60,273 bases of DNA, taken from the IMG/VR virus record IMGVR_UViG_2778261541_000006, positions 1-60,273 of that record; one strand, given 5' to 3'. The stretch's first letter is position 1, and each line of letters starts with the position of its first letter. The notes under the pieces were generated by a model, which was not told the origin of the DNA, made no database searches, and was given only the letters and a program-made list of their open reading frames with translations. The DNA comes from a virus. Its lineage: Duplodnaviria; Heunggongvirae; Uroviricota; Caudoviricetes. Positions 11,456-58,229 of the stretch are shown here, piece after piece. A program made the translations under genes and the position numbers.

Positions 11456-11468
11456 TAGTTAACGATAA

Positions 11469-11496: not shown

Positions 11497-11499
11497 TGG

Positions 11500-12860: not shown

Positions 12861-15566
<2,706 letters not shown>

Positions 15567-23119: not shown

Positions 23120-23122
23120 GAA

Positions 23123-23152: not shown

Positions 23153-23160
23153 TAAATATA

Positions 23161-24465
23161 CTATATAAACTTAGATATAATATCGTGAATCTGTTGTAGC
23201 GGGATATCTTCCATCTCATTCTTAATAAGAGAGCGGTTAGATGCTGTCAGTGAAGGCCATTTTGTTTTCCAGGCTAGATATGCTCGCCATGAGCAGCCTG
23301 TTTCGTAAGGTTTATTCATATTAGTCATTGAGTGCTCAACCGCATGTATGTATTTTTTCTCAAAATTGGTTCCTTTTACTTCAAATAAACTACCGAAATA
23401 AATAAGCCATTTTGCCAAGTGTTCATACTGCTCCCATGCGCCAGGCTTTTTAGTAAGTTCTATTTTTTTATCTATTATATTACAAAAAACATTTAATACA
23501 TTTTCATTATTCCAGCTATATCCAGATGATGAAATGGAGGAAATGATATGATAAAAAGAATCCTCTAGCTTCAAGAACTCTATTTTATACTCTCTTCCGT
23601 TTTTTATTACCGATTTGATTGAGTGCCTCAATTTGTCTTTTATTTTTTTTGCTTCTGGAATTTTATCGTTAAGTTTTCTAAAGAAATCAGATACTTCTGT
23701 TTTATCTATAACCCTAACCCCATAGCAGGAAAAATAGTAATCTTTAATAGGTTGCAATAGTTCCCCTCGGGAAACAAGGAAAATATTGGAGGACATTACG
23801 TTGTCCCGTGAAAATACCTTATATTCATTTATAATAGCCTTTAGGTTCGCGTCACTTAGAGAATAGCCAAGGATAACAATAGTGTTTTCATGTAGAACTG
23901 TGCTTAGTTTATTAGAAAAGTAAGAATTACCATTTATAAATCTGAAATAATCCTCGCTAGTAACAACCATGTCTGATGGGGAGTCTATAGAACCGTGAAC
24001 ATGGTAGACTTTAACCTCACAATTATATTTTGGAATTGGCAGGCCGGGGGTGATTGTACACGTTCGATTCTCTCCAGCCAGCTTTTCTGCTAACTTGTCA
24101 TAATTTGTCGTAATTACTTTAAATGTGTTTTCTTTGAAAAAGTCTTGAATATATTCAATTGATGGATCAAGTTCGATTGAGGCTATGATTTTCTCAATCT
24201 CTTGGTAAATATTTTTCCCCGAAAGTATAAATTTTAGTGCAATAACCTGAGCAGCTTCTTCAAGGCTAAGGTCTTTTGCTTTTCCATCAGGAAATAATTC
24301 CTCTTTGAGTGAGTCACCATCCTTCAATAAACCGCACAGTTGCTCCAATAAAGATTGCCAACTTGGGGCTTTATCATCAGAAACAGCCTTTGAAAATCCA
24401 GTGCCTGTAAGAAAGCACAGCCTATGTGTAGCCGCTGCATAGGCAATTTCTATATACTCGCTCAT
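23161..24465 (-). CDS. SIR2-family protein (ThsA-like SIR2 domain) with uncharacterised C-terminal domain
   Basis: 434-aa ORF in a very AT-rich block; N-terminal half carries SIR2-type motifs in the same order as Thoeris ThsA (FLTGTGFS, TTNYDKL, HVHGS, ILGYSLSD); C-terminal 200 aa unrecognised. Confidence 0.7.
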   Translation of the reverse strand: MSEYIEIAYAAATHRLCFLTGTGFSKAVSDDKAPSWQSLLEQLCGLLKDGDSLKEELFPDGKAKDLSLEEAAQVIALKFILSGKNIYQEIEKIIASIELDPSIEYIQDFFKENTFKVITTNYDKLAEKLAGENRTCTITPGLPIPKYNCEVKVYHVHGSIDSPSDMVVTSEDYFRFINGNSYFSNKLSTVLHENTIVILGYSLSDANLKAIINEYKVFSRDNVMSSNIFLVSRGELLQPIKDYYFSCYGVRVIDKTEVSDFFRKLNDKIPEAKKIKDKLRHSIKSVIKNGREYKIEFLKLEDSFYHIISSISSSGYSWNNENVLNVFCNIIDKKIELTKKPGAWEQYEHLAKWLIYFGSLFEVKGTNFEKKYIHAVEHSMTNMNKPYETGCSWRAYLAWKTKWPSLTASNRSLIKNEMEDIPLQQIHDIISKFI

Positions 24466-24521
24466 TACTTACTCCATTTACTTATAGTTCTACGGAGAAG
24501 TATACCCTAATGCATTGACGT

Positions 24522-25619: not shown

Positions 25620-25700
25620 GCCCGAATTATGGTGGGGCGTGATGGGGAGGCTTCGGCCTGCTGGTTTCATGTACGCCAGTCTGCTAACCCCGTCACGTCC
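25620..25700 (+). ncRNA. candidate c4-like antisense RNA
   Basis: Segment containing CATGTAC and CTGCTAA, complementary to two copies each of GTACATG and TTAGCAG upstream (25542-25561) and at the icd RBS (25710-25749); extent approximate. Confidence 0.35.
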
Positions 25701-25757
25701 TGCCACCCGTTTAGCAGCGGGTAGCAGGTTGTTAAACCTGTACATGAGGCCGTAACT

Positions 25758-25979
25758 ATGGTTAATGCCAATCCTTGCGCACGCCCTGAATTTATCTGGC
25801 GCTTTTACTCCTGCCAGAAACGTCACTATCACTTCGTTATCGCACCAACAGAAGATGAGGCACGTTCTCAGCTTCCGGATGCTCCCTGTATTTTCTCTGC
25901 CCGCTTTTCTACCGATTTGCGCAATTCTCTCAGTTACTGGTGCCTCCCTGTTAACGCTTCTGCTCAGGAGGGGCTATGA
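25758..25979 (+). CDS. Icd-like small protein, translationally coupled to ant
   Basis: 73-aa ORF overlapping the downstream antirepressor start by 4 nt, the arrangement of P1 icd-ant1. Confidence 0.5.
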   Translation: MVNANPCARPEFIWRFYSCQKRHYHFVIAPTEDEARSQLPDAPCIFSARFSTDLRNSLSYWCLPVNASAQEGL

Positions 25980-27088
25980 GAACGTCATTAGTCACCCGTG
26001 AAGAGATGATCGAGGCAATTGAACAGCACACTGCCTGTATCAGTACCAGGGATATACCAGGCGTTATTGCCAACTACTTCATGATCACCAAACAACTTTA
26101 CCGGAGAAAGGACAAGAACGCGGTTCACCGCATTCTTCTAACTGATATCCGTGAATACCTGCTCGAACAGGGTCGTCTTGATTATGCAACCGTAACCGCC
26201 GAAGCACGCAAGGAGGCACACAGAATGAAAGCAACTAACGTTAAATCAGAAAAAATTCATGCACCTTCAGTTCAGGAATCGGAGCTGGTGGTTGTTCAAA
26301 ATCAGCCGGATGAAATTCCCGTTCTGGAATGGCAGGGAGTACGTGTCGTAACAACCGAAACTCTTGCTAAGGGGTACGGAACCGATGAAGGCAATATTCG
26401 TAAAAATTTGTCTTGCAACTCCGATCGCTTTGAAGAAGGTAAACACTACTTTCTTTTAACTGGTTCAAAATTAAGAGAATTTAAGAACAGAGTTACTTTT
26501 AGTAACTCTGTTGGTAAGAACGCCAGAAACCTCACTCTCTGGACGGAACGCGGCGCAGCCCGCCACGCTAAAATGATCGAAACCGATCAGGCATGGGCAT
26601 TCTTTGAAAAACTGGAAGACAGCTACTTCCGGCAAAAAGAACAGCAACCGGTCGCAATCCCTCAGACGCTTCCCGAAGCTCTGCGCCTGGCTGCCGAGCT
26701 GGCTGAACAAAAGCAACTTCTGGAACAGAAAGCCCACCAGCTAAATCAGCAGCTGGTGGCCGCAGCCCCTAAGGTCGATTTTGCCGACCGGGTATCAGTG
26801 GCTAAGGGGATCCTGATTGGGAATTTTGCAAAGGTTGTTGGACTTAAGCAAAATGCGCTGTTTGCCTGGTTACGGGAGAACGGCATCCTGATTGCGTCCG
26901 GCGGACGTAAAAATGTACCGTTTCAGCAGTACATAAACGCCGGATATTTCACAGTGAAAGAAGTGGTGCTGGATGATGAAGATGGCTATCAGATACGGCT
27001 GACGCCTCAATTAACGGGTAAAGGCCAGCAGTGGTTGACGCGTAAACTGCTCGATGCTGGCTTGTTAAAACCGGTGGCGGCTGAATGA
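25976..27088 (+). CDS. phage antirepressor (ORF6N N-domain plus KilA-C/Ant C-domain), copy 1
   Basis: 370-aa ORF; central motif IPVLEWQGVRVVTTETLAKGYG and C-terminal region VSVAKGILIGNFAKVVGLKQNALFAWLRENGIL are characteristic of antirepressor families. Confidence 0.65.
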   Translation: MRTSLVTREEMIEAIEQHTACISTRDIPGVIANYFMITKQLYRRKDKNAVHRILLTDIREYLLEQGRLDYATVTAEARKEAHRMKATNVKSEKIHAPSVQESELVVVQNQPDEIPVLEWQGVRVVTTETLAKGYGTDEGNIRKNLSCNSDRFEEGKHYFLLTGSKLREFKNRVTFSNSVGKNARNLTLWTERGAARHAKMIETDQAWAFFEKLEDSYFRQKEQQPVAIPQTLPEALRLAAELAEQKQLLEQKAHQLNQQLVAAAPKVDFADRVSVAKGILIGNFAKVVGLKQNALFAWLRENGILIASGGRKNVPFQQYINAGYFTVKEVVLDDEDGYQIRLTPQLTGKGQQWLTRKLLDAGLLKPVAAE

Positions 27089-27092
27089 TTAA

Positions 27093-27115
27093 AAAAGGCG
27101 GCCTTTCGGCCGCCA
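27093..27115 (-). terminator. terminator for the cre-side transcript
   Basis: Hairpin GGCGGCC-TTTC-GGCCGCC preceded on the plus strand by an A run, i.e. followed by a T run on the minus strand. Confidence 0.4.
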
Positions 27116-30728: not shown

Positions 30729-30760
30729 ATTATGCCCGGCATCAACCGGGCATTCTTCCA

Positions 30761-31855
30761 TTATTCAGCCGCCACCGGTTTTAACAAGCCAGCATCGAGC
30801 AGTTTACGCGTCAACCACTGCTGGCCTTTACCCGTTAATTGAGGCGTCAACCGTATCTGGTAGCCATCTTCATCATCCAGCACCACTTCTTTCACCGTGA
30901 AATACCCCGCGTTGATGTACTGCTGGAACGGCACATTTTTACGTCCACCGGACGCTATCAGGATGCCGTTCTCCCGTAACCAGACAAACAGCGCGTTTTG
31001 CTTAAGTCCAACAACCTTTGCAAAATTCCCAATCAGGATCCCTTTAGCTACTGATACCCGGTCGGCAAAATCGACCTTAGGAGCGGCGGCCACCAGCTGC
31101 TGATTTAGCTGGTGGGCTTTCTGTTCCAGAAGCTGCTTTTGTTCAGCCAGTTCGGCAGCCAGGCGTAGGGCTTCTGGTAATGTTTGGGGGATTGTGATCG
31201 GTTGCTGTTCTTTTTGTCGGAAGTAGCTGTCTTCCAGTTTTTCAAAGAATGCCCATGCTTCATTTGTGTCCACGATCTTAGACATGCGTGCAGCACCGCG
31301 TTCGGCCCAGAGAATTACCTGACTTGTATATTTGCTAACCAAGTGACTAATAGTCACTAGCCTTTTAAATTCCTTTAACTTTGAACCGGTTAAGAGATAG
31401 TAATGCTTACCTTCTTCAAAGCGATCGGAGTTGCGAGACAAATTTTTACGAATATTGGCTTCATCGGTACCATACCCTCTAGCAAGAGTCTCGGTTGTTA
31501 CGACACGTACTCCCTGCCATTCCAGAACGGGAATTTCATCCAGCTGACTTTGAACAACCACCAGCCCGGATTCCTGAATTTCTGATTTAACGTTAGTTGC
31601 TTTCATTCTGTGTGCCTCCTTGCGTGCTTCGGCGGTTACGGTTGCATAATCAAGACGACCCTGTTCGAGCAGGTATTCACGGATATCAGTTAGAAGAATG
31701 CGGTGAACCGCGTTCTTGTCCTTTCTCCGGTAAAGTTGTTTGGTGATCATGAAGTAGTTGGCAATAACGCCTGGTATATCCCTGGTACTGATACAGGCAG
31801 TGTGCTGTTCAATTGCCTCGATCATCTCTTCACGGGTGACTAATGACGTTCTCAT
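30761..31855 (-). CDS. phage antirepressor (ORF6N plus KilA-C), copy 2
   Basis: 364-aa ORF; N-terminal about 88 aa and C-terminal about 185 aa identical or nearly so to copy 1, central segment diverged. Confidence 0.65.
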   Translation of the reverse strand: MRTSLVTREEMIEAIEQHTACISTRDIPGVIANYFMITKQLYRRKDKNAVHRILLTDIREYLLEQGRLDYATVTAEARKEAHRMKATNVKSEIQESGLVVVQSQLDEIPVLEWQGVRVVTTETLARGYGTDEANIRKNLSRNSDRFEEGKHYYLLTGSKLKEFKRLVTISHLVSKYTSQVILWAERGAARMSKIVDTNEAWAFFEKLEDSYFRQKEQQPITIPQTLPEALRLAAELAEQKQLLEQKAHQLNQQLVAAAPKVDFADRVSVAKGILIGNFAKVVGLKQNALFVWLRENGILIASGGRKNVPFQQYINAGYFTVKEVVLDDEDGYQIRLTPQLTGKGQQWLTRKLLDAGLLKPVAAE

Positions 31856-32073
31856 AGTCCCTCCTGAGCAGAAGCGTTAACAGGGAGGCACCAGTAACTG
31901 AGAGAATTGCGTGAATCAGTGGAAAAACGGGCAGAGAAAATACATGGGGCGTCAGGAAGCTGAGTGCGGGCCTCATCTTCTGTTGGTGCAATAACGAAGT
32001 GATAGTGACGTTTTTGGCAGGAGTAAAAGCGCCAGATAAATTCAGGATGAGTTGGGGTAGGGATAGTAGCCAT
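31852..32073 (-). CDS. Icd-like small protein, copy 2
   Basis: 73-aa ORF (MATIPTPTHPEFIWRFYSCQKRHYHF...) with AAGGAGG RBS, overlapping the copy-2 antirepressor start by 4 nt; N-terminus differs from copy 1. Confidence 0.5.
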   Translation of the reverse strand: MATIPTPTHPEFIWRFYSCQKRHYHFVIAPTEDEARTQLPDAPCIFSARFSTDSRNSLSYWCLPVNASAQEGL

Positions 32074-32393
32074 ATTGGCAGCCTCCTTAGACGTTGGTAT
32101 GTAACCACCGCAGAAGAGACCAATCTTGCTGGCGGTGGACTGTACGGAGTTGGCCTTACTGGCGTCCAAGGTAACCAGCCTACCCGAAGGTAGCCCCATA
32201 CAGCCCACCATTGTAGATGGTGTGCGTGTACGCCGATACAAAAAAAGACGCGAGCGGCGTCTGTATCGCCTTAGACTTAAGCGGGAGGCCAATCCCGGCA
32301 CCCGTTTTAATGAGGTGCCTGATAAGCATAAACCGAAAATGCCTCAAGGCGCAAGAGGTCAGGTTCAATGTAACATCGGTAGCTAAAAAACAC

Positions 32394-32412: not shown

Positions 32413-33897
32413 TCATTCATTAAGCCATGCCAGAGCTTCATCAACCTGCGCTTCGTCTTCGACGCTAAGCACTTCGTCCTGGGGAACATAATCCGCCAGC
32501 ATAGCGAAACAATATGTATCCCAATGGTCTGGTGAGTGCAGATTGAGTTTTTTCTTCATATCCTCCTTACTCATCACCTTCCATTGACCTGCGGAGTTAA
32601 TACCTACAGGTATTTTAGACGCTTCCTCAATGGTTGCATTACCCTTATCCAGTCTCATACGACCAGATTTTACGGCCTCTGCGGCTTGAACGTTGGCATA
32701 AGCACGTTTATCAAAGTACAGGCTCTTATCTTCACGGCTATGCATCTTTTTACCCCAGCGTATACGCTGTACGGTAATACCATAATACTCGTACATCAGA
32801 TCCGCCGTTGCTTTACCCAGCCCATCGCCGTCTATCGCTATGGTGATATTTGGGAATCGCTCAGGATTACATTCTGCGAAAATTTTGGCGGCAAGCTGCG
32901 TTTCTGTAACGTCTGTGTATTCCAGCATTCGATAGTTGATTACACGGCGTTTATTTCGCTGGCCGGACACCATCATGATATTGATAACGGACTTATCCCG
33001 TCCCGTACCACCAGCAACGTCCACACATGCAAGCCAGCCCCATCCTTTGGCAATCTTGACTTTCCGCCGCGTTGCACGTTCAACCTCATCACGTCCAAGA
33101 AGGAAGCCATCCTGTGATTTAGGGAATAGGCCGCGCACCTTAATCATGTACATAGGGTTATCACGCCCGCCGTACTCCGCCAGCTTCATTTTGATAAATG
33201 CTGGCGTTACCAGCGGTGATTCCTCACTGTTAAGCGTGATCGCCGTATAAACGCCATCAGGGTTACCAGGACGCTTGGCCAGTTTATGGTGTGTATCGTA
33301 GAAATAGCCGCTTGGGCGTGTAGGCTGTGACAGTAATAAGATGCGGTTATCCTGTCCGGTAAGAGCACCGGTGATGATACCGAAAGCTCTATCACTGACA
33401 CCGGAGGCTTCATCGATAATATACAGAAGATGATCTGCGTGTTCACCGGCGAGAGCTTCTTCACTTCCCAGACGAAAGCCCTTCGGTACTACAGTCCATA
33501 CACCTTTACCTGTAACCTCATAGAAAGCGGTTTCTGTCAGAACAAAATAATCAGCAAGCCATGGGAAACGGCTGGTGGCAGTAGCCCAGTTTATCTTGAT
33601 GTACTTGAATATACCGGTCATTACCTGCTGAATTTTGTTCGCAACGATAATGGCGCGGGCACCGGGATACATGATTATGAACAACATGATCATGATAGAA
33701 GTCATGTCTGATTTCCCGGTACCGTGACCAGACGAAACAGATGTCTTGCTACCCTGTTCCTGCACAGACTCAATAATCAGATCCTGCTGCCAGGTAGGTG
33801 TTTTGCCGAACAAAACATCAGCGGCAGCAATCCAGTCATAACGATATAGCGCCACCAGCTCGCGCCAACGTGGATCCGTTACGCAACTTCTGGCCAT
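32413..33897 (-). CDS. pacB: terminase large subunit PacB
   Basis: 494-aa ORF overlapping pacA stop by 1 nt; ATPase-like motifs ([19 protein letters not shown]). Confidence 0.9.
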
Positions 33898-35090
33898 TAA
33901 TCATCATCCCCGTATAGCTTGCGGGTAACTTCTTCGTCTTCCTCCTCGTCTTCGTCCAGGTCTTGTTCCAGCCATGGGTCGTTTGATACACCTTCAGTAT
34001 CAACATCTCCATAACCGCCTGTATCAACGATATCGGCGATTTCTTCCCTACGCTGCTCAATCCACAATGCGGCATCGGCGCGGCGGTTGGCGGCCCGTTC
34101 TCGCGCAACTTTGTCCAGATCTTCAAGAGAAGGGCCACCGACGGCTGTTTGCCTTTCCTCATCATCGGTATTGGTCTTAGGAGCACGCAGATCGGCTTTG
34201 ATTTGCTCCAGCATCAGGGGCGGCACTTTCCCGCCATGCGCCTCGATGAATTCAGCTGCTTCCAGCACTGACCAGTTATTTTCACGCTTTCGTTCGTATG
34301 CCAGCTTAACAATGCCAGCTTGCCCCATAGACAAAGCGTGCTTTTCCGCCTCCCGGCTTTCTTTTCGATAGTTATTCCGGATGCTGTAAATGGTGTTGAT
34401 CAGACTGCTTATCTGCGCGGAACAGCTGTTTAGCATGCTCGCGATACGGTATTCAGGCGGAGTACCTTCATCATCGTCTTTTTGCTGATCGCGCATTTCC
34501 TGCACCAAGCGAATACACGTATCCCTGGCGTTCTCCAGCATAAGGAGATGAGAAAGAGACTTTTCCAGAAGAGTGGTTTCCAGAACATCGGCCCCGGACC
34601 GACGCAACATAGCGCGCGCGGCCTTCCGCGCTTCAACGTTATCTATCAGGTAATCGCCAGCTTCGAATTCAAAGCGTTCACCATCATCATCCAGGGTGTC
34701 GCGTTCCAGGCGATCACGTAAGGTACGGTGGGCGCGGGTGATCACGTCATGATCATCAGAGCGATCATTTATGCGCTTATTTTGGCGCTTAGCGTTCTCG
34801 ACTGCGGCACTGACAACAGCATTAACTCTTTGTTTTTCAGCCATTTCAGTCGCAATGTGATCACCCGCACGTTGATCATTAGCGTGATCAATGATCATGC
34901 TTTTTAGTGGTTTCCTGACAGGCTTATTTGGCTTACGACTGTCCGCTGTTCCGGTGTCTTCTTTGAATGCACGGAGATAACGACGTGCGGTGTTTGGGTT
35001 GAGATTAAACTCGGCGGCATATTGTGCGATGGTGTAACCACCCTCTCGCGCCAGGCGAGCAAAATTCTTCTTGTGATCGTCCCAGGTCAC
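33897..35090 (-). CDS. pacA: terminase small subunit PacA
   Basis: 397-aa ORF with N-terminal HTH-like region and acidic C-terminus; contains the pac site in its 5' part. Confidence 0.9.
34741..34905 (-). other. pac: pac packaging site with TGATCA/G hexamer clusters
   Basis: Two clusters of GATC-containing hexamers (TGATCA, TGATCAT...) about 100 bp apart inside pacA; matches the P1 pac architecture. Confidence 0.7.
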
Positions 35091-35176
35091 TTATGCTTCC
35101 TTTCGTATAAAACTCTTTTTGACGCGAGGGTAACGAAAGTCACATGTCAAAAGGCCCGGAACGGGCAAGCAATCAA

Positions 35177-35629
35177 TCAGATACGTGCGGATGTGGCATT
35201 ACCGTAATGACGGTGCTGACGGACCACCTTATTGAAAAGTTGACGCGCCATCACCCAAGGCTGGTGCTCCCGGCGTTCCTTTTCGTCCTGCGTCATATAG
35301 AGTTCGTTCTGGAGTTTTTCATCAAACCGGCGCGGAGCGCGGCTGCGGCGAAAGAATTCAGGATTCAGAGAGTGGATCTGAAATCTACGTGGGCGTGTAC
35401 TGTCATCAATCAAAACAGACGAATACTTAGACACAGCGATAGCCTTTAAGCGCAGATAAACATCGCGCTTATCGACATCCAGATGCGGGTATTCCTTTTC
35501 AAGAATTGCTGCGAGTTCTTTCGCTGATAGAAGAGATTTAGTGCGGATCATGTAATCCGCAATCTCGTACGATGTTATTCGTGAGTGATTTATTTCCATG
35601 AAGTGGCGTCCCTGCCAGTTAAGTAACAT
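35177..35629 (-). CDS. lpa: Lpa late promoter activator (gp10)
   Basis: 150-aa ORF directly upstream of pacA; size and position match P1 Lpa. Confidence 0.8.
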   Translation of the reverse strand: MLLNWQGRHFMEINHSRITSYEIADYMIRTKSLLSAKELAAILEKEYPHLDVDKRDVYLRLKAIAVSKYSSVLIDDSTRPRRFQIHSLNPEFFRRSRAPRRFDEKLQNELYMTQDEKERREHQPWVMARQLFNKVVRQHRHYGNATSARI

Positions 35630-35704
35630 CCTGTCACCTACTGATTAGCCCATGTCAACTAATCAACGTCGAATATAATACCCTCGATTAAAGAAATAGC
35701 AATA

Positions 35705-35716
35705 CACTAGAGCAAT
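35705..35716. promoter_or_regulatory. degenerate C1 operator-like site upstream of lpa
   Basis: CACTAGAGCAAT partial match to the operator core. Confidence 0.3.
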
Positions 35717-35717
35717 T

Positions 35718-36761
35718 TTATCTAACACTAGACGAATGACTTGTGATAGCGCCGACTCCAAGCGCGTAATCAAAGAACAATCGTTGATGCATCGCCAGCC
35801 TACCGTGCGTCTTCTCCCAATTATCGCGGTCACGCTCAATATCACGCTGGCATGACTGGCACAGAGGAATAGCATAAATGTCATGCGCGCATAATCGACT
35901 ATGACGAACGATATAAGGCGTAATGTGAGCGCCAGCTCCCGCAGCTCCACAGCCACAGCATGGACGGGAAGCCACAAAGTCCATGTACTCGGGCAATTTT
36001 AGCGATTGAAGTTTTGGTATTTTGAAATGCGCCATACCTGGGTCGGAGTCAACATCCACAGGGCATACTTTTGCACGCATCGGCGCGGCGCGTTCTTCCA
36101 TCATCTGAACATATGCTGTAGCGCGATCGTCATACGGGCGAATATCCGCCTCTTTCAGAGGTCCGCTATCCTGCGGAGTAGCCTTCATCTTATTTATTGA
36201 TATGCGGCAGACTTCTTCCGGCATCAGGTGCATCATGTTGCGCATGAAAGCCCACCAGCACAGCTCCTGAATACTTAAATCATGGCTATTTGAAAGGCCC
36301 ATTTCCTGACGGGCGACATCCAGTATCCAGTTAACGCGATTATTGTGCAGCGTTTCTTTCAGCTCATTAAAACCACGCATCCGGTAATGGTTATCGTGAT
36401 GCCAGCACAACAACACCGCGCTATTGTCTCGTTCAGCGTGGACAATATGGTTGTCACACCAACTACGATCTGCGGCCTGGCATTGCCCCTCTTTCCTACG
36501 CAACCACGCCACCAGCGCGTCAATTCCACCAATACGGCGAAACAGTTCATCGCTGTTAAAAAACGGCTGCAACGCCTCATTTGTTGCCATAGTTTGCTCG
36601 GAAACAACGAGGCCGTCGTCCATGTGCTCGATTAACTCACGCGGCACCGGCTCCATAATAAATTTACGGCCAGCCTCCACCAGCTTTCTGACTTCCTGAT
36701 CCACTTTGAATGTGGCGACGCCAAGCTCTTTTTGTACAAAGGGAGTAATTACGGCTTTCAC
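35718..36761 (-). CDS. PdcB-like protein (post-doc position), cysteine-rich C-terminus
   Basis: 347-aa ORF downstream of doc; C-terminal Cys/His cluster (PCCGCG ... HITPY ... PLCQSCQ) suggests an HNH-like zinc-binding fold. Confidence 0.4.
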
Positions 36762-36788
36762 ATCACACCTTTCATCACTGATTGGGCT

Positions 36789-36989
36789 TTATCTGCTGCC
36801 CGGCATTCTCTGTTTAAGCACAACCATTTCCTGACGGCATAACACAGCAATAGCGGTCCTAGCACCAATTTGCTTACCAACCAGGTATTGCTTTACCTCG
36901 CGGCGACTCACGCCATCAAGAAGCATCTTTAACGCTTCACGGGACAATTTGTTGTATTTACGTGCCATTAATCTACTCCGCAGAACCAT
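36789..36989 (-). CDS. small basic protein (pdcA-like position)
   Basis: 66-aa ORF overlapping the doc stop region. Confidence 0.3.
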
Positions 36990-37353
36990 ATAATCTACGT
37001 AACGTGTCGGCGACAGAAGATACAGATATCTCGCCAGTCGCAGCGCCTACAGTAAGGTCTGCCAGTTCAGGTGAATCAAATACCTGCACCCCGTTACGGC
37101 GTAGAAATAACAGCGCACTGTTTAGCGCGGTACGCTTATTGGCATCATTGAATATATGCCCTCTCGCAGTAGCCACCAGGTAGGTTGCGGAGACTTCGAA
37201 AAGGTCGGTAATCTCTTCGTACACAACTCTGGCCTGGACTCTCCCGATAATGGCCTCTGCCCTGCCCGGATCTGACATTCCCGGCAGGCCGCCGTAGCGG
37301 TTTATATTCGCATCATGAAGCGCAATAAGTTCTTCCGGTGATATATGCCTCAT
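36973..37353 (-). CDS. doc: Doc toxin (Fic-family kinase)
   Basis: 126-aa translation [25 protein letters not shown] ... matches P1 Doc as I recall it. Confidence 0.95.
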
Positions 37354-37574
37354 TATCGGTTAACCAGTTCCTTGTTGGTGGAGTCCAGGGTGTCGAACAG
37401 GGATGCAAATTCAGCATCCAGCGCCGCTTTTTTGTAGGCTTCGAAAGTAGCCTTACTGACAATTACTGCTGGCTCACGGCCTCTGCGGGTGATTTCAACC
37501 TCTTCCCCGGCTTCAACATTGTTGAGCACTTCAGAAAGGTTGCCGCGCGCGGTACGGAAGTTAATAGATTGCAT
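37353..37574 (-). CDS. phd: Phd antitoxin
   Basis: 73-aa product [40 protein letters not shown] ... matches P1 Phd; stop overlaps doc start by 1 nt. Confidence 0.95.
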
Positions 37575-37740
37575 AAACACCTCGTGTACTCGTTATGTGT
37601 ACACAATTATAAACTTCACAGGCATAAAGCACCAGCACTTTGCGGCTTAACAAACCTCTAGGCAGGTCATTCGTAGGAACTGCTAAAGCATCCAAGTTGC
37701 TGTAGAATCACCGCCAATTACATAAGCCTGAAAGAAGTGG

Positions 37741-39303
37741 ATGAAAATGACAAGTATTCAACAACGTGCAGAGCTTCATCGTCAAATCTGGCAAATTGCT
37801 AACGATGTCAGGGGTTCGGTCGATGGATGGGATTTTAAGCAATACGTTCTGGGCGCACTTTTCTACCGTTTTATCAGCGAAAATTTTTCCAGTTATATTG
37901 AAGCCGGTGATGACAGTATCTGTTATGCGAAACTGAATGACAGCGTAATTACTGATGACATTAAAGACGATGCCATCAAAACCAAAGGTTACTTCATCTA
38001 CCCCAGTCAGCTTTTCTGCAACGTAGCTGCGAAAGCAAATACCAATGACAGACTGAATGCGGATTTAAACAGCATCTTCGTTGCTATCGAAAGTTCTGCT
38101 TACGGTTACCCTTCAGAAGCTGACATCAAAGGTTTGTTTGCTGATTTCGATACTACCAGTAACCGCCTGGGTAACACCGTTAAAGATAAAAATGCCCGCC
38201 TGGCTGCGGTTCTGAAAGGAGTTGAAGGGCTAAAACTTGGTGACTTCCACGAACATCAGATTGACCTGTTCGGTGACGCCTATGAGTTCCTGATTTCTAA
38301 CTATGCGGCAAATGCCGGTAAGTCAGGCGGTGAGTTCTTTACACCGCAGCACGTCTCCAAGCTGATTGCACAACTGGCTATGCACGGGCAGACCAACGTT
38401 AACAAAATCTACGACCCGGCAGCAGGTTCCGGCTCACTGTTGTTGCAGGCTAAAAAGCAGTTTGATAACCATATCATTGAAGAAGGCTTTTTCGGACAGG
38501 AAATCAACCATACGACCTATAACCTGGCACGTATGAACATGTTTTTGCACAACATCAACTACGACAAGTTTGATATCAAGCTGGGCAATACGCTGACTGA
38601 GCCGCACTTCAGAGATGAAAAACCGTTTGATGCCATCGTTTCTAACCCGCCGTATTCGGTGAAATGGATTGGCAGCGATGACCCGACGCTGATTAACGAT
38701 GAACGTTTTGCCCCGGCTGGCGTCCTGGCCCCCAAATCCAAAGCTGACTTCGCCTTTGTACTACATGCGCTGAACTATCTTTCGGCCAAAGGTCGCGCTG
38801 CGATTGTTTGCTTCCCGGGTATTTTTTACCGTGGCGGCGCAGAGCAGAAAATCCGTCAGTATCTGGTCGACAATAACTATGTCGAAACCGTGATTTCACT
38901 GGCACCGAACCTGTTCTTTGGCACCACCATTGCCGTAAACATTCTGGTTCTGTCTAAACATAAAACGGATACCAACGTTCAGTTTATTGACGCCAGCGAA
39001 CTGTTCAAAAAAGAGACTAACAACAATATCCTGACCGATGCCCATATCGAACAGATTATGCAGGTATTTTCCAGCAAGGAAGATGTTGCTCATCTGGCAA
39101 AATCTGTCACGTTTGAGGCCGTTGTCGCTAATGACTATAACCTGTCGGTAAGCAGCTATGTGGAAGCGAAAGATAACCGCGAAATTATCGATATCGGTGA
39201 GCTGAATGCTGAGCTGAAAACCACGGTCAGCAAAATCGACCAGTTGCGTAAAGATATTGATGCAATTGTGGCTGAAATTGAAGGCTGCGAGGTGCAGAAA
39301 TGA
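37741..39303 (+). CDS. hsdM: type I restriction-modification methyltransferase subunit HsdM
   Basis: 520-aa ORF with N6-adenine MTase motifs (NPPYS at [10 protein letters not shown]; AdoMet-binding [10 protein letters not shown]). Confidence 0.9.
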
Positions 39304-40508
39304 GCGAGCTGAGCTATCTGGAAAAACTGTTGGATGGGGTTGAGGTTGAGTGGGCAACATTGGGTTCTATGGCAGATATCGGTACTGGAAGCTCAAATCG
39401 TCAGGATGAAAGCGAAAATGGAATTTATCCATTCTATGTTCGCTCAAAGAATATCTTGAAGTCAGATACCTTTGAATTTGATGAGGTAGCAATAGTCATT
39501 CCTGGTGAAGGTGGAATTGGCGACATATTTCACTATGTTGAGGGGAAATATGCTCTACATCAAAGGGCGTATAGAATTCGTATCACAACTAATGCCGTAG
39601 ACACGAAGTTTTTGTATTACTTCATGTCATCTAGCTTTAAGCAGTACATCTTGACAAAAAGTGTGGGTGCTACCGCCATTTCGATAAGAAAACCCATGCT
39701 GGAAGGATTTAAAGTTCCCATTCCTAGCCCGGACAACCCGGAAAAGTCCCTAGCCATCCAGTCTGAAATCGTTCGGATTCTGGATAAGTTTACTGCACTT
39801 ACCGCTGAGCTAACCGCTGAGCTAACCGCTGAGCTTAACATGCGTAAAAAACAGTACAACTTCTATCGTGACCAGTTGTTGAGTTTTAAAGAGGGGGAGG
39901 TTGAGTGGAAAAGTCTGGAAGATATTGCTTTATTTAGACGGGGTTCATTTCCACAGCCATATGGAAATAGTGAATGGTATGATGGAGAAGGTTGCATGCC
40001 TTTTGTTCAGGTAGCTGATGTGGCTGATTCAGGATTTACATTACACACAAAAACCAAACAACAGATTTCTAAGATTGCACAAAGCAAGAGCGTTTTTGTT
40101 GAGGCTGGAACAATTGTTGTGACACTGCAAGGTACTATTGGTCGAGTAGCAATAACACAGTACGATTGTTATGTGGATAGAACTCTTGCAATATTTACTA
40201 ACTTTAAAGTAAAAATAAACAAAAAATACTTTGCTTATCAACTAAAAGCTAAATTCGATTCAGAGAAAGAATTTGCAAGAGGAAGTACTTTGAAGACAAT
40301 TACAAAAGAAGAGTTTTCTAAGTTCCAATTACCTCTTCCCTCAATAAACGAACAAAATCGTATAGTATCACTATTGGATAAGTTCGATACACTGGCTCAT
40401 TCAATAAAACAAGGTCTCCCGCGTGAAATCGAGTTGCGCCAGAAACAATACGAGTACTATCGTGATTTACTGTTCAGTTTCCCGAAACCTGAAACTGTCA
40501 GTAATTAA
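39300..40508 (+). CDS. hsdS: type I R-M specificity subunit HsdS, type IC (EcoR124-like)
   Basis: 402-aa ORF overlapping hsdM stop by 4 nt; two target-recognition domains separated by a central [12 protein letters not shown] repeat region. Confidence 0.85.
39800..39835 (+). repeat. 3 x 12-bp tandem repeat (ACCGCTGAGCTA) encoding TAEL x3 in the hsdS central conserved region
   Basis: Three direct copies, the third with one substitution; in-frame within hsdS. Confidence 0.8.
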
Positions 40509-40629
40509 TTGACCGTTGCTACCGACCGGGCCACCTTAACATCCGGTCTGTATATAGACTATTTTTTACGTGCCGGAAGTCACTCTTAACGCCCTTCCGA
40601 CCCTTGCCAGACGGCACAAAGGATGCGCT

Positions 40630-43600
40630 ATGACTCATCAAACACACACCATTGCTGAATCCAATAACTTTATCGTTCTTGATAAGTACATCAAAGCTGA
40701 GCAAACAGGCAACAGCTATCAGAGCGAATCGGACCTGGAACAGGAACTGATTCAGGACCTGCGAAATCAGGGCTATGAATTTATATCCGTAAAATCTCAG
40801 TCGGCGATGCTGGCCAATGTTCGACAACAGCTTCAGAGCCTCAATGGTGTGGTGTTTAATGACAGCGAGTGGCGGCGTTTCACGGAGCAGTATCTGGACA
40901 ACCCGAGCGATGGAATTCTGGATAAGACCCGTAAAATCCATATCGACTATATTTGCGACTTTATTTTTGATGACGAGCGACTTGAGAACATCTATTTGAT
41001 AGATAAAAAGAATCTCATGCGCAATAAGGTGCAGATTATCCAGCAGTTTGAACAGACGGGTTCTCATGCTAACCGTTATGACGTCACGATCCTGGTTAAT
41101 GGTTTACCGCTGGTGCAAATCGAACTAAAAAAACGCGGGGTGGCGATTCGTGAGGCTTTCAACCAGATACATCGTTACAGTAAAGAGAGTTTTAACAGCG
41201 AAAATTCCCTGTTTAAGTATCTGCAACTGTTTGTCATTTCTAACGGCACCGATACCCGTTATTTTGCCAACACGACAAAGCGCGATAAAAACAGTTTTGA
41301 CTTCACCATGAACTGGGCTAAAGCAGACAATACACTGATTAAAGACCTCAAAGACTTTACCGCTACCTTTTTCCAGAAACATACTCTGCTTAATGTTCTG
41401 GTGAACTACAGCGTTTTTGACAGCAGTCAGACACTACTGGTAATGCGACCGTACCAGATTGCCGCCACCGAGCGCATTCTGTGGAAAATTAAGAGTTCCT
41501 TTACAGCGAAGAACTGGTCAAAACCGGAAAGCGGTGGGTATATCTGGCACACTACCGGTTCTGGTAAAACCCTCACCAGCTTTAAAGCCGCGCGTCTGGC
41601 AACAGAGCTGGACTTTATTGATAAAGTCTTCTTCGTGGTCGACAGGAAAGACCTCGATTACCAGACCATGAAGGAATATCAGCGTTTTTCGCCAGACAGC
41701 GTCAACGGCTCGGAAAATACCGCAGGACTTAAACGAAATCTGGACAAGGACGATAACAAAATTATCGTCACTACTATTCAGAAACTCAATAACCTGATGA
41801 AAGCAGAAAGCGACCTGCCTGTATATAATCAGCAAGTGGTGTTTATATTTGATGAATGCCACCGCAGCCAGTTTGGAGAAGCGCAGAAAAACCTGAAGAA
41901 GAAATTCAAACGCTATTATCAGTTTGGTTTTACCGGCACACCTATTTTCCCGGAAAACGCCTTAGGCTCAGAAACGACCGCCAGCGTATTTGGTCGTGAA
42001 TTGCATTCGTATGTAATTACCGATGCGATTCGTGATGAAAAAGTGCTCAAATTCAAGGTGGACTACAACGATGTGCGGCCACAGTTTAAGTCTTTAGAGA
42101 CAGAAACTGACGAGAAAAAACTAAGTGCGGCTGAAAATCAGCAGGCGTTTCTTCATCCCATGCGTATACAGGAAATTACGCAATATATTCTGAATAACTT
42201 CCGCCAGAAGACGCACCGTACTTTCCCTAGCGCAAAAGGTTTTAATGCTATGTTGGCAGTGAGCAGCGTGGATGCTGCAAAAGCCTATTACGCGGCGTTT
42301 AAACGGTTACAAGAGGAAGCCGCTAATAAATCTGCAACTTATAAACCGCTGCGTGTTGCGACAATCTTCTCCTTTGCCGCTAATGAAGAACAAAATGCCA
42401 TTGGTGAAATTTCCGATGAAACTTTTGATACCAGCGCAATGGACAGCAGTGCTAAAGAGTTTCTTGACGCTGCAATTCGTGAGTATAACAGCTATTTTAA
42501 AACTAACTTCAGCACCGACAGTAACGGTTTTCAGAACTACTATCGCGATTTAGCCCAACGGGTTAAAAATCAGGATATCGATCTGTTAATTGTCGTGGGG
42601 ATGTTTTTAACTGGCTTCGATGCTCCAACATTGAACACGCTATTCGTCGATAAAAACCTGCGTTTTCACGGCTTGATGCAGGCATTTTCCCGCACCAACC
42701 GTATTTATGATGGAACTAAAACCTTCGGTAATATCGTCACTTTCCGGGATCTGGAACGCTCAACTATTGATGCCATAACGCTGTTTGGTGACAAAAACAC
42801 CAAAAATGTGGTTTTAGAAAAGAGTTATGCAGAGTATATGGAAGGCTTTACTGATGCTGCCACTGGTGAAGCTAAGCGCGGCTTTATGGCAGTAGTTTCA
42901 GAACTGGAACAACGGTTCCCTGACCCTGCCAGTATTGAAAGTGAAAAAGAGAAGAAAGACTTCGTTAAACTGTTTGGTGAATACCTGCGTGCCGAGAACA
43001 TCCTGCAAAACTATGATGAATTTGCCACGCTGAAAGCCCTGCAACAAATCGATCTTAGCGATCCTGTTGCGGTAGAAAAATTCAAAGAAGAACATTATGT
43101 GGATGATGAAAAGTTCGCTGAATTGCAAACGATTCGTCTCCCTGCTGAACGCAAGATTCAGGATTATCGTTCTGCCTATAACGATATTCGTGACTGGCAG
43201 CGCCGCGAGAAAGAAGCTGATAAAAAAGAAAAATCAACCACTGACTGGGATGACGTGGTTTTTGAGGTCGATTTGCTGAAGTCTCAGGAAATAAACCTGG
43301 ATTATATCCTTGGACTGATTTTCGAACACAACAGACAAAATAAAGGCAAGGGCGAAATGATCGAAGAGGTCAAACGCTTAATTCGTTCAAGCCTGGGGAA
43401 CCGGGCGAAAGAGGGCCTGGTGGTCGATTTTATTCAGCAAACGAACCTGGATGATTTACCAGACAAAGCCAGTATCATTGAGGCATTCTTTACGTTTGCT
43501 CAACGCGAACAGCAACGTGAAGCAGAAGCATTGATAAAAGAAGAAAATCTCAATGAAGATGCAGCAAAACGCTATATTCGCACGTCTTTAAAACGCGAAT

Positions 43601-43746
43601 ACGCCACCGAAAATGGCACAGAATTAAACGAAACATTACCAAAACTTAGTCCGTTGAATCCGCAATATAAAACGAAAAAACAGGCAGTTTTCCAGAAAAT
43701 CGTCTCGTTTATTGAGAAGTTTAAAGGCGTAGGCGGAAAAATATAG
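40630..43746 (+). CDS. hsdR: type I R-M restriction subunit HsdR (EcoR124-family)
   Basis: Start at internal Met ([14 protein letters not shown]) with AAAGGA RBS; helicase motifs (TGSGKT, DECHRSQ) and PD-(D/E)xK region; N-terminus matches my recollection of EcoR124I HsdR. Confidence 0.9.
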
Positions 43747-43765
43747 CCCAATTCGTGTTTTTCTT

Positions 43766-43794
43766 GCGGGTTCTTAATTAAACCCGCAAGAGCT
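43766..43794. terminator. hairpin terminator after hsdR
   Basis: Inverted repeat CTTGCGGGTT-CTTAATTAA-ACCCGCAAG just after the hsdR stop. Confidence 0.4.
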
Positions 43795-43998
43795 CGTGGG
43801 GTTCCAAATGGCTAATATACTCCCCTTACCCATGCGCGACGATGCCGCCAAAAGTGATAGAGAACAGCCAGAAATAGATCGCGGTCATAATGATTTTGAA
43901 TGCCGTGTTCATATCTTCAGCTCCTGTGATTGATTGGATATATGCCGCGCCCCTTGCGGCATGTTTTTATTTTCACACACTCTGTTTTAAAAATCAAG

Positions 43999-44013
43999 AT
44001 TTATTAGAGCAAT
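43999..44013. promoter_or_regulatory. C1 operator
   Basis: ATTTATTAGAGCAAT, reverse-orientation operator motif. Confidence 0.5.
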
Positions 44014-44519
44014 TATTGTTGATGAAGAAGCGCATTTTCATACTCCCTGACCATTAACGTAAGTACGCCGTGACTCCTGAAAACACGCGCCACTTCAATC
44101 TTATCTTCCAGCGCGAACGCAATTTTACTTATACCAATTTTCTTCAGGAGATCAATCTTTGCTGGACCGTCATTTCTGTCATCGGTGGCAGGACGCATAG
44201 ATAGCAAAGGCTCAGCCCCATTTGTTACGTGCTTACGCAACCAGGCTCGTGTTTTATCCCTGGCTATCTCACAGCGCCCGGTTACAAACCAGAGGGTGTA
44301 AATGCCGGACAACTGGCGCACCATATCAATAACTGGAGTGATGGGAGCATCAGTGTCACAGGCAAGGTTAAACTCGTTCCAGTGCTCTGTTAATGCACCT
44401 TTGCCAGGTGGTGGAAGTAAATGCAGCCTGTCTTCCGTTGCCTCTGATATCGTCCCATCAATATCAACTATGACGATGTACGGACGTTCCTGGTGTGCGT
44501 GTTTATTGAAAATACTCAA
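44013..44519 (-). CDS. HAD-superfamily hydrolase-like protein
   Basis: 168-aa ORF with N-terminal DxDGT motif (IVDIDGTI) typical of HAD phosphatases and polynucleotide 3'-phosphatases. Confidence 0.45.
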   Translation of the reverse strand: MSIFNKHAHQERPYIVIVDIDGTISEATEDRLHLLPPPGKGALTEHWNEFNLACDTDAPITPVIDMVRQLSGIYTLWFVTGRCEIARDKTRAWLRKHVTNGAEPLLSMRPATDDRNDGPAKIDLLKKIGISKIAFALEDKIEVARVFRSHGVLTLMVREYENALLHQQ

Positions 44520-44591
44520 ATGCCCTCCTCATTGGACGAAAAAAATGCTGGTGGGAGCACTCCACCAGCATTAAAAGTGACACTGTAACTA

Positions 44592-57401: not shown

Positions 57402-58229
57402 TTATTTCACCGGAACAAACGGAACAGCGGTATTACTGGTCATATACTGCGGTAATGTACCGTTCCATTTGTTGATCGCTTCCAACTCCATAACACCGGG
57501 GTTCTGGCGCAGAGCTTCACCACGTAAACGAATGGCATCAGCTTCGGCCTGGGCTTTTGTGCGAATAGCATCAGCCTGTCCGGCAGCTTCCGCGCGCAGC
57601 ATGTTGGCCTCTGCTTCACGTTGTTTGACCTCTTGCTCGCGTTGCAGGGTTTTTTGGTTTGCCGTGACTTTGGCGTTAATACTGTCAATAACTGTTGGCG
57701 GGTATTCTGGCTTACCTACATAAGAGAGGCTCATCACCTGAATGCCGATTGGCGTCATTTCTTCCTGAATGTCTTTAAGGGCTGCATCAAGCAATTCAGA
57801 TTTGCCACCGTCGATAAATTTGTCGGTGGTCATTTTGCTGGCTAACCGGTTCAGAGCATCTGCAACCTTCTGGCGTAGATCGGTATCAGTAATATCATCT
57901 ACACCTTTGCGATAGGTCTGAAATACCGTTGTGACTTTTGCTGGATCAACCTTGTAGGCTACGCCGATGTGGTAACCAATGGTTGTTCCGTCGCTCATCT
58001 GGAAGCTGAACGGCTCATCGTATGTCTTCATTTGCTTAAAGGTCGGGAAGATATAAACTTCAGTATTCAAGCCTGTCCAGTAGCGACCAACGCCAACTAC
58101 TTCACCGATACCTTTATCATCCCCCAGCTTATTTACTTTGATCCCTACGTTACCTGGCTCTACCCGATCGCATCCGGTCAGACATAAAGAACCCAAAATA
58201 ATCGCTGCACTAATCAACGTTTTTTTCAT
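57402..58229 (-). CDS. plp: SPFH/band-7 lipoprotein Plp
   Basis: 275-aa ORF with lipoprotein signal (LISAAIILGSLCLTGC) and SPFH-like coiled-coil C-terminus. Confidence 0.65.
   Translation of the reverse strand: MKKTLISAAIILGSLCLTGCDRVEPGNVGIKVNKLGDDKGIGEVVGVGRYWTGLNTEVYIFPTFKQMKTYDEPFSFQMSDGTTIGYHIGVAYKVDPAKVTTVFQTYRKGVDDITDTDLRQKVADALNRLASKMTTDKFIDGGKSELLDAALKDIQEEMTPIGIQVMSLSYVGKPEYPPTVIDSINAKVTANQKTLQREQEVKQREAEANMLRAEAAGQADAIRTKAQAEADAIRLRGEALRQNPGVMELEAINKWNGTLPQYMTSNTAVPFVPVK

Follow-up and report, generated by a model that had tools for sequence, protein, structure and literature searches.

A type IC restriction-modification cassette in the variable slot between phd-doc and pap of a P1-like genome

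Genes of the hsdMSR cassette

The stretch of DNA analyzed here (the window, 60,273 nucleotides) contains a type IC hsd cassette of 6171 bp on the + strand (37651–43821, delimited by blastn and alignment against P1), situated between P1-derived flanks that carry doc and phd on the left and pap on the right; its extent is close to the span of the original prediction (37590–43800). The cassette has a GC content of 43.5%, versus 48% in the flanks. PADLOC identified MTase_I, Specificity_I and REase_I, and Pfam assigned the M, S and R subunits to separate genes, each with its own characteristic domains; no Rfam families were found within the cassette. The first gene, hsdM (37741–39303, + strand), encodes the N6-adenine methyltransferase subunit of 520 aa (Pfam HsdM_N and N6_Mtase), with the motifs DPAAGSG at residue 225 and NPPY at residue 302. 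It is followed by hsdS (39300–40508, + strand), encoding the specificity subunit of 402 aa (Pfam Methylase_S twice), the start of which overlaps the end of hsdM by 4 nt (ATGA). The ORF list bears out the predicted sizes, coordinates and overlap of both genes.

The third gene, hsdR (40630–43746, + strand), encodes the translocase/endonuclease subunit of 1038 aa (Pfam HSDR_N, SWI2_SNF2/ResIII, T1R_D3-like and EcoR124_C), with the nuclease motif D-x13-ExK, QxxxY (QIHRY), GSGKT at 310 and DECH at 408. As predicted, it has its own ribosome-binding site and starts at ATG 40630, 121 nt after the hsdS stop codon and 6 nt after AAAGGA. A GTG at 40570 opens a longer, mechanical ORF of 1058 aa; ATG 40630 is taken as the true start because the solved EcoR124I HsdR shares that methionine and also has 1038 aa. 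The 121-bp hsdS–hsdR spacer (40509–40629, + strand) holds this ribosome-binding site and a candidate promoter, identified by consensus match only, in the form of a weak sigma-70-like sequence (TTAACA-18-TATTTT, 40536–40565, 9/12 consensus). The spacer has no prrC-like insert and is all that lies between the two genes, in contrast to the EcoprrI locus, which contains the anticodon nuclease gene prrC. In EcoR124 the genes are ordered hsdM-hsdS-hsdR, with hsdR set apart and served by a separate promoter. The same order is found both in the window, where hsdR lies 121 bp beyond hsdS, and in the type IC prototypes EcoR124I and EcoR124II (plasmids R124 and R124/3).

Sequence, complementation and antibody cross-reaction are the criteria that separate the type I families (PMC3874165). 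By sequence, the window locus belongs to type IC, the family to which it had been assigned: HsdR and HsdM are ∼98% identical to the EcoR124I/II subunits over their full length, with all catalytic motifs intact, and the conserved regions of HsdS, including the TAEL array, are identical to those of EcoR124 HsdS. HsdM differs from EcoR124II HsdM (7bst_D) at 7/520 residues and aligns with it at 1152 bits over residues 1–520, versus only 67 bits for the type IA EcoKI M subunit. HsdR aligns with EcoR124I HsdR (2w00_A) at 2267 bits over residues 1–1038, with ∼22 differences from EcoR124I/II among the 968 of 1038 residues displayed. The exact HsdM sequence had no match in a 15-billion-protein collection. 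The exact HsdR sequence (WP_089637552.1) is present on 8 contigs and falls in a 12,681-member cluster (90% identity), a sign of purifying selection on HsdR.

Junctions and retained P1 signals

Both genes of the addiction module lie immediately to the left of the cassette on the opposite strand (ORFs and Pfam), confirming the predicted position beside phd-doc. The toxin gene doc (36973–37353, − strand, 126 aa, Pfam Fic/DOC) is collinear with P1 doc, and the antitoxin gene phd (37353–37574, − strand, Pfam PhdYeFM_antitox and P1 annotation) encodes 73 aa from the ATG, its mechanical ORF extending to a GTG at 37580. The P1-derived Pphd promoter region follows (37575–37650, placed by the blastn map, a three-way alignment and the P1 features), and P1 homology ends at 37650, equivalent to P1 87970, at the humD stop codon. 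The cassette stands in place of P1 84483–87969, a 3487-bp block comprising pmgT, pmgU, pmgV, upfM/N/O, hot, lxr and humD; either hsd or the humD block may have been the incoming segment. Both junctions are sharp, one at the humD stop codon and the other 5 nt before the pmgT start. Transposition was considered as an insertion route and rejected, because the junctions have no direct or inverted repeats of at least 7 nt and there is no IS in the cassette. Recombination is the probable route of arrival, whether it took place in the conserved flanks or in the conserved hsd genes.

A hairpin with an 11-bp stem (43762–43791, ∼−25 kcal/mol, z −3.4) lies 16 nt after the hsdR stop codon. The hairpin is thus present where a terminator had been proposed but, as a correction to that reading, a U-tract is absent on both strands. 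Downstream of hsdR, the earliest canonical site resembling an intrinsic terminator is a hairpin plus T-run (43940–43974, + strand, z −3.9) inside P1-derived DNA. The right flank also contains an unannotated small hydrophobic ORF of 28 codons (MNTAFKIIMTAIYFWLFSITFGGIVAHG, 43826–43912, − strand) with AGGAG upstream, and the junction falls 4 nt past its stop codon. This ORF had no PHROG match; with 1–2 aa changes, it recurs in P1 and in each of four further P1-like loci that were compared (L002, L003, L005 and L006). Beyond it lie the P1/P2pmgT promoters and the C1 operator OpmgT (Op88) (43969–44013, − strand), mapped from the P1 annotation via the alignment, with the operator reading AATTGCTCTAATAAATC on the − strand, and then pap (44013–44519, − strand), which encodes a HAD/PNKP-type phosphatase of 168 aa and forms the right conserved flank. 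PpmgT/Op88 is retained, and is oriented toward the small ORF and, beyond it, the hsdR 3′ end.

The placement of these signals raises the speculative and rather improbable idea that PpmgT, convergent into the 3′ end of hsdR, lowers HsdR upon induction while hsdM-hsdS stay on. In such a scheme, the cassette would always be placed so that C1-repressed PpmgT faces hsdR with no U-tract terminator between them, and inactivation of C1 at prophage induction would release antisense or convergent PpmgT transcription and reduce HsdR. If true, restriction, and not modification, would be coupled to the lysis-lysogeny switch. The same signals bear on an alternative that we consider unlikely, namely a system that has intact genes yet is silent or acts as a methyltransferase only, with hsdR poorly expressed or opposed by PpmgT. 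Neither hsdM nor hsdR has a strong promoter consensus upstream (for hsdM, the consensus scan used as the promoter search found no convincing candidate), PpmgT/Op88 is kept and aimed at the hsdR 3′ end across a hairpin that lacks a U-tract, and the annotation of the deposited relative vB_EcoM-673R5 splits hsdM and hsdR into fragments. Against this, all of the catalytic motifs are intact, HsdR is identical on the 8 contigs and belongs to the large cluster described above, and, according to the P1 annotation, PpmgT should be under C1 repression in the lysogen. The window locus is best described as an intact and, with high probability, active type IC restriction-modification system, carried as accessory cargo in the known P1-like variable slot between phd-doc and pap; expression, methylation and restriction by hsdMSR are predicted here from sequence.

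The P1-like backbone and the distribution of the hsd allele

The window was mapped with blastn against P1 (NC_005856), which gave 13 blocks covering most of its length. Approximately 51 kb of the 60 kb is collinear with P1, at 92–98% identity in the main blocks, this backbone being that of the 60-kb window, with the replication, partition and most structural genes lying beyond it. The collinear content includes the tail, lysis, dar, cre-lox, c1, pac, lpa, late-operon and tRNA regions, and collinearity breaks only at published variable regions (PMC9603915). The replaced block corresponds to the "variable region 8" defined for P1-like plasmids (PMC9603915), and every gene of this block in P1 is non-essential (PMC10695390). 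In comparison with the P1 reference, the window thus shares the collinear backbone, phd-doc, pap, PpmgT/Op88, the small ORF and the dar genes, but has hsdMSR where P1 has pmgT-pmgU-pmgV-upfMNO-hot-lxr-humD in the phd-doc slot. It also differs in the other slot, where P1 encodes EcoP1I (res-mod) and the window carries a SIR2-like gene on a 1.4-kb segment. The P1 record has res/mod at 3.5–9.7 kb and no hsd, in agreement with the statement that canonical P1 encodes EcoP1I and no type I system. The proposal of a second hotspot at which cargo was exchanged or gained is likewise upheld, with hsd in place of pmgT…humD and the res-mod slot separately changed.

Type IC systems had been described in the original prediction as classically plasmid-borne; those plasmid loci themselves carry the same P1 flanks. 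The P1 record notes homologies to the flanks of EcoDXXI and R124/3 at 87969..88647 and 84263..84482, and the window junctions, at P1 87970 and 84482, coincide with the ends of these homologies. The EcoDXXI locus (plasmid pDXX1) is preceded by doc-phd DNA and followed by DNA of the pap-pmgT intergenic region, at 96–98% identity to P1, and its flanks end at the same P1 coordinates as those of the window (87969 and 84482); for R124/3, the P1 record notes P1 DNA downstream of hsdR. That P1 DNA flanks type IC loci was described by Tyndall et al. (1997, pmid 9157244), as cited in PMC12707154. EcoR124 differs in its carrier, which is a conjugative IncF-type plasmid, whereas the carrier of the window locus is a P1-like genome.

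The same layout of doc-phd, hsdMSR and pap is found in 471 PLSDB plasmids and in two deposited phages (vB_EcoM-673R5 and phi456). The PLSDB plasmids, the two phages and the Logan contigs L006 and L007 match the window in layout and junctions, with 96–99.5% identity outside the target-recognition domains (TRDs); these hsd-carrying P1-like elements have other TRD combinations, except for L006/L007, which have the same TRDs and two TAEL repeats. In PLSDB, the hsd layout (471 records) outnumbers the P1-reference layout (26). However, among 80 doc-linked loci in IMG/VR, hsd occupies the slot in 20/80 and mosaic humD-containing alleles that differ from P1 in 54/80. The suggestion that most elements have hsd in this slot was therefore rejected, and the claim was reduced to that of a common allele, present in roughly a quarter to a third. 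The arrangement is thus not peculiar to this element: the linkage of P1 flanks to type IC genes is established, and the allele is frequent. With this arrangement on record since 1997 and widespread among sequenced relatives, the locus is genuine but unremarkable; the new variant in it is the HsdS allele alone.

The existence of type IC loci with P1 flanks on other replicons suggests a further alternative, that the window represents a P1 fragment captured in another plasmid, as in R124, pDXX1 and p20171101CC-1, rather than a functional phage-plasmid. One such example is provided by L002, in which c1…doc-phd-hsdMSR-pap-pmgS is bounded by IS1 copies in the IncHI1B plasmid p20171101CC-1, and the PLSDB matches include 375 conjugative and 272 mobilizable plasmids. 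We regard capture as very unlikely, as collinearity with P1 extends over most of the 60 kb and is interrupted only at the published variable regions.

The HsdS allele and its implications

The N-terminal, central (TAEL) and C-terminal conserved regions of the window HsdS align to EcoR124 HsdS, whereas its TRDs do not. The N-terminal TRD spans aa 19–139 (39354–39716, + strand) and the C-terminal TRD aa 205–349 (39912–40346, + strand). Both are unrelated in sequence to the EcoR124 TRDs, so the half-sites are predicted to differ from those of EcoR124. Among the 120 nearest HsdS proteins, TRD1 alone is common to 55, TRD2 alone to 55 and both to 4, showing that TRDs are shuffled among relatives. 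No recognition sequence could be predicted by comparison with the sole solved type IC S subunit (EcoR124), to which the TRDs have no useful similarity; a large protein database gave only generic names, no characterized homologue was identified, and a literature search on methylomes of P1-like plasmids gave no usable specificity.

The central conserved region contains the TAEL array (39801–39836, + strand), three tandem 12-bp units (ACCGCTGAGCTA/T) encoding (TAEL)x3. EcoR124I recognizes GAA N6 RTCG and EcoR124II GAA N7 RTCG, with two and three TAEL repeats, respectively, and the same correspondence of two versus three repeats to N6 versus N7 is seen in engineered hybrids (PMC3874165). Three repeats, as in the window, are also present in the type IC systems EcoDXXI (plasmid pDXX1) and EcoprrI (chromosomal prr locus), which, like EcoR124II, are active (PMC3874165). 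The two-repeat allele is carried by the source strains of SRR31599384 and SRR31598644. The HsdS of L006/L007, the closest relatives, has two TAEL units and is otherwise identical to that of the window, within a context that is 99.1–99.5% identical and includes an identical HsdR; the change from L006/L007 to the window is thus the same as that from EcoR124I to EcoR124II. By this precedent, the three units predict that the window HsdS recognizes the same half-sites as the two-repeat allele, with a spacer one base longer, and the window HsdS is most likely a three-TAEL derivative of the two-TAEL allele of near-identical P1-like elements.

The exact 402-aa HsdS had no match in PLSDB, complete RefSeq E. 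coli genomes, 34 repeat-array IMG/VR loci or the 15-billion-protein collection, and the versions recovered all had two repeats, so there is no independent second sighting of the three-repeat form with these TRDs. This absence from the protein collection could indicate that the third repeat arose as an artefact of assembly or sequencing, or that the S subunit is non-functional, and that the real or working allele has two repeats, as do all four database proteins with the window TRD pair (4/4) and almost every one of the 120 nearest HsdS proteins. However, the additional repeat is a clean, in-frame 12-bp unit in an array of 36 bp, far below read length, and three-repeat alleles are common, occurring on 15 IMG/VR contigs as well as in the active EcoDXXI, EcoprrI and EcoR124II (PMC3874165). 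We therefore consider an artefact or a non-functional S subunit very unlikely.

By analogy with the type IC family, HsdS and two HsdM would form an M2S1 methyltransferase acting on a bipartite target, with N6-methylation of a single adenine per half and the two TRDs of HsdS setting the two half-sites. Addition of two HsdR would give R2M2S1, which would bind unmethylated targets on incoming DNA, hydrolyze ATP, pull in DNA and cut at distant sites. The lysogen would thereby be protected from foreign phages and plasmids, and the DNA of P1-like progeny would bear the matching methylation. Type IC restriction alleviation operates via assembly, and these systems transfer efficiently into naive cells (PMC12707154, PMC3874165). 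Assembly of the window complex would pass through the cleavage-incompetent R1M2S intermediate, a stage that would let the system enter an unmodified host and leave it alive, a property suited to an element transmitted by infection.

For the most part, the locus has little import beyond annotation. It confirms P1-like phage-plasmids as a main vehicle of type IC systems in Enterobacteriaceae, and the slot beside phd-doc as a recurrent exchange point; in host-range studies and plasmid epidemiology, this element should be scored for a type I restriction-modification system and a SIR2-like gene, not for the EcoP1I assumed from the reference. The window and L006/L007 constitute a natural, otherwise isogenic pair that is one TAEL repeat apart, and would allow a clean comparison of spacer-length switching in vivo. 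The pair would also bear on mutual restriction between sibling phage-plasmids, where TAEL expansion could, speculatively, act as an exclusion switch by which one P1-like lineage would restrict its near-identical, two-repeat siblings.

The hsdMSR genes and their family

Three same-strand genes (+) fill the cassette: hsdM (37741–39303, 520 aa), hsdS (39300–40508, 402 aa) and hsdR (40630–43746, 1038 aa). The ORF list agrees with the original prediction on the lengths of HsdM and HsdS and on their 4-nt overlap, an ATGA in which the hsdM TGA meets the hsdS ATG. The mechanical start of the hsdR ORF is GTG 40570; the real start is ATG 40630, which follows AAAGGA by 6 nt and the hsdS stop by 121 nt, in line with the predicted separate start and ribosome-binding site about 120 bp after hsdS. 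From this ATG the product matches the N-terminus of the solved EcoR124I HsdR chain, also 1038 residues long. There is no prrC-like gene in the hsdS–hsdR interval. As predicted, the system sits beside the addiction module, with phd (37353–37574, −) directly left of the cassette and doc (36973–37353, −) left of phd (ORF list and Pfam). The terminator hairpin proposed after hsdR held only in part: a strong hairpin lies 16 nt past the stop codon (43762–43791, −24.8 kcal/mol, z −3.4), but it has no U-run on either strand, and the first canonical terminator-like site downstream on the + strand is at 43940–43974.

In a search of solved structures, HsdR matched EcoR124I HsdR over residues 1–1038 (2267 bits, with 22 differences counted in the 968 displayed residues), and HsdM matched the EcoR124II M protein over 1–520 (1152 bits, 7 differences), against only 67 bits for the type IA EcoKI M protein. 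HsdS aligns end to end with EcoR124 HsdS and is near-identical in the N-terminal, central and C-terminal conserved regions, whereas both target-recognition domains (TRDs) are essentially unrelated. The Pfam domain sets are complete and include EcoR124_C, which is specific to this family; PADLOC assigned each subunit to type I. HsdM has intact AdoMet and NPPY motifs, and in HsdR the D-x13-ExK, QxxxY, GSGKT and DECH motifs are likewise present. Subunit alignment, proposed beforehand as the check for another type I family or for lesions, thus returned the claimed EcoR124 family with every motif present. On the strength of the full-length matches, domain sets and motifs, the locus is a complete type IC system with no visible lesion.

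Insertion into a P1-like backbone

The reference P1 genome was mapped against the window by local blastn. Relative to that reference, the window is a reversed P1-like genome, with main backbone blocks 92–98% identical to P1 covering most of the 60 kb; gaps without a P1 match total ~13 kb, and the remaining blocks are immI-like segments (70–82%). The homology extends to the P1 darB and darA/ddrA/ddrB/hdf regions. Window 32415–37650 corresponds to P1 93204–87970 and window 43822–57383 to P1 84482–70924; as the matches stop at 37650 and resume at 43822, the non-P1 insert is 37651–43821 (6171 bp), with a GC content of 43.5% versus 48% in the flanks. It takes the place of P1 84483–87969, a 3487-bp block with pmgT, pmgU, pmgV, upfM/N/O, hot, lxr and humD. 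Other non-P1 segments occur at 7609–9996, 11504–12699 and 57384–58479; the first and last lie within isaA-IS1-isaB and tciABC, both published as variable in P1-like plasmids.

In three-way alignments, the left junction coincides with the stop codon of humD, just past the Pphd promoter, and the right junction lies 5 nt ahead of the pmgT start codon, with no direct or inverted repeats at either. Chromosomal copies of the hsd genes share homology with the window only across 37735–43746, a stretch that opens 6 nt ahead of the hsdM ATG and closes with the hsdR stop codon. One such copy (E. coli chromosome GCA_964257875.1, 6435–12435) has the same TRD pair with two TAEL repeats, and its island neighbors are a YeeP-like GTPase, an Ag43-type autotransporter, DUF932 and an Antirestrict-family (anti-restriction) gene. 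Transposition was rejected as the route, given the repeat-free junctions and a cassette free of IS elements. With the chromosomal homology confined to the hsd genes, the sequences fit exchange of the cassette by recombination within conserved hsd genes or flanks.

The divergent phd and hsdM are 160 bp apart; the 84 bp before hsdM occur only in cassettes with P1 context, and a consensus scan found no clear promoter upstream of hsdM. At the other end, the P1/P2pmgT promoters and C1 operator Op88 (43969–44013, −) are retained from P1 and point through a 28-codon ORF at the hsdR 3′ end, with only the U-less hairpin between, so that convergent transcription toward the hsdR 3′ end may be possible on induction. 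This unannotated hydrophobic ORF (43826–43912, −; MNTAFKIIMTAIYFWLFSITFGGIVAHG) has an AGGAG ribosome-binding site and ends 4 nt from the cassette junction. Its P1 counterpart (5743–5829 of the fetched P1 locus, L001) lies between the C1-controlled PpmgT promoter and pmgT, and it is kept in every hsd-bearing relative examined. It has no PHROG match, and its one or two amino-acid changes across five loci are too few for a coding test.

Canonical P1 carries res-mod (EcoP1I) at 3.5–9.7 kb and no hsd, as the original prediction held. In the window, P1 3469–9749 is replaced by 23120–24521, whose sole gene (ORF 23161–24465, −) encodes a 434-aa SIR2_2-domain protein (Pfam SIR2_2, 2e-23; PADLOC PDC-S25, 2e-24, and ThsA-like, 8e-18) with a full-length match to PHROG 7567, annotated as function unknown. 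This gene is a candidate for stand-alone defence, sited at the other restriction hotspot. Because the res-mod segment is replaced, the element lacks EcoP1I at the canonical locus and carries a type I system in another variable slot, which bears out the proposed swap or addition of restriction cargo.

A 1.3-kb inverted repeat (arms 25785–27099 and 30750–32046, 89–97% complementary) brackets the ref-cre-lox-coi-c1 segment. Each arm carries a C4 antisense RNA (Rfam; 25625–25710, +, and 32128–32215, −), and the arms hold ant-like ORFs of 370 and 364 aa, 70–82% identical to P1 immI. In reference P1, by contrast, immI is single-copy and located elsewhere; with the geometry seen here, the cre/c1 segment could invert.

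The HsdS allele

The TAEL array (39801–39836) consists of three 12-bp units: ACCGCTGAGCTA, ACCGCTGAGCTA and ACCGCTGAGCTT. Neither the PLSDB plasmids nor the complete RefSeq E. coli genomes contain the two window TRDs together, and the exact 402-aa HsdS is absent from a 15-billion-sequence protein collection, where HsdR is identical to WP_089637552.1. Among the 120 nearest HsdS, 55 share the N-terminal TRD alone, 55 the C-terminal TRD alone and 4 both, which is the reshuffling of modules that type I families are expected to show. The four that share both have 398 aa and two TAEL repeats each. One (P0001) sits on Logan contigs L006 and L007 in the same P1-like context, 99.1–99.5% identical to the window over 11–16 kb, with identical HsdR and one residue different in HsdM. 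As its HsdS is identical save for one 12-bp unit fewer, the window allele carries a very recent in-frame repeat expansion. The same event separates EcoR124I (GAA N6 RTCG) from EcoR124II (GAA N7 RTCG), and in engineered EcoR124/EcoDXXI hybrids the spacer shifts with repeat number exactly as predicted (PMC3874165). Three repeats are not unusual among type IC alleles: 15 IMG/VR contigs matched the three-repeat pattern and 19 the strict two-repeat pattern, none with the window TRDs.

A mosaic slot and its type IC allele

The hsd arrangement beside phd-doc is long known and widespread. The P1 GenBank record gives P1 87969–88647 (doc-phd) as 98% identical to sequence upstream of the EcoDXXI hsd locus, 84263–84482 as 96% identical to sequence downstream of it, and, for 84399–84482, 98% identity to the part of plasmid R124/3 that follows hsdR. 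The cassette junctions in the window fall on these end points. Tyndall et al. (1997) reportedly described P1 DNA flanking type IC loci. That work is cited in PMC12707154, PMC2853133 and PMC3205389. A survey of 54 P1-like plasmids named the pmgT–humD block "variable region 8" and res-mod "region 1" (PMC9603915), and in a CRISPRi screen that left out upfM, the tested genes of the block were all non-essential for P1 (PMC10695390). The sole new item is the HsdS allele, with its unreported TRD pair and third TAEL repeat.

At ≥80% coverage, the doc-phd/hsdMSR/pap layout occurs in 471 PLSDB plasmids and the P1-reference layout in only 26; two deposited phages, vB_EcoM-673R5 and phi456, also have the former. 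In vB_EcoM-673R5 (ON470615.2, locus 2856–8807), hsdM and hsdR are annotated as several fragments, which stem either from frameshifts introduced in sequencing or from decay of this copy of the cassette. The majority status that the PLSDB counts gave hsd was overturned by 80 IMG/VR loci fetched through Doc and classified: 54 hold mosaic humD-containing alleles, mostly longer than the P1 version, 20 hold hsd (18 complete, with pap 5.9–9.3 kb from phd), 4 other content, and 2 are too short to classify. The humD-bearing alleles are mostly 7–9.5 kb; they vary in which of lxr, hot, pmgV and pmgT they hold, and they also carry hypothetical genes, Ea22-like ones among them. Just two of the 80 slots are of P1 length, and at least one (L091) combines hsdMSR with humD. 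The slot is thus highly mosaic, and the hsd cassette is one of its common alleles, with a share of about one quarter to one third.

In IncHI1B plasmid p20171101CC-1 (NZ_AP025221.1, locus 1–13768), a non-P1 plasmid, IS1 copies flank a P1 fragment running from coi and c1 through doc, phd, hsdMSR and pap to pmgS. This is a modern parallel to the way in which R124 and pDXX1 could have gained P1-flanked type IC loci.

Gene integrity, family membership, genomic position and repeat expansion are established; for methylation, cleavage and establishment we draw on the EcoR124 literature, by which M2S1 would methylate a bipartite target and R2M2S1 would translocate DNA and cut unmodified DNA at a distance. 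The cassette would be expected to establish safely in a naive host, since assembly of type IC enzymes passes through an R1 intermediate that is cleavage-incompetent and does not depend on ClpXP (PMC12707154, PMC3874165). A lysogen of this phage-plasmid would gain a barrier against other mobile DNA, and the progeny genomes would be marked.
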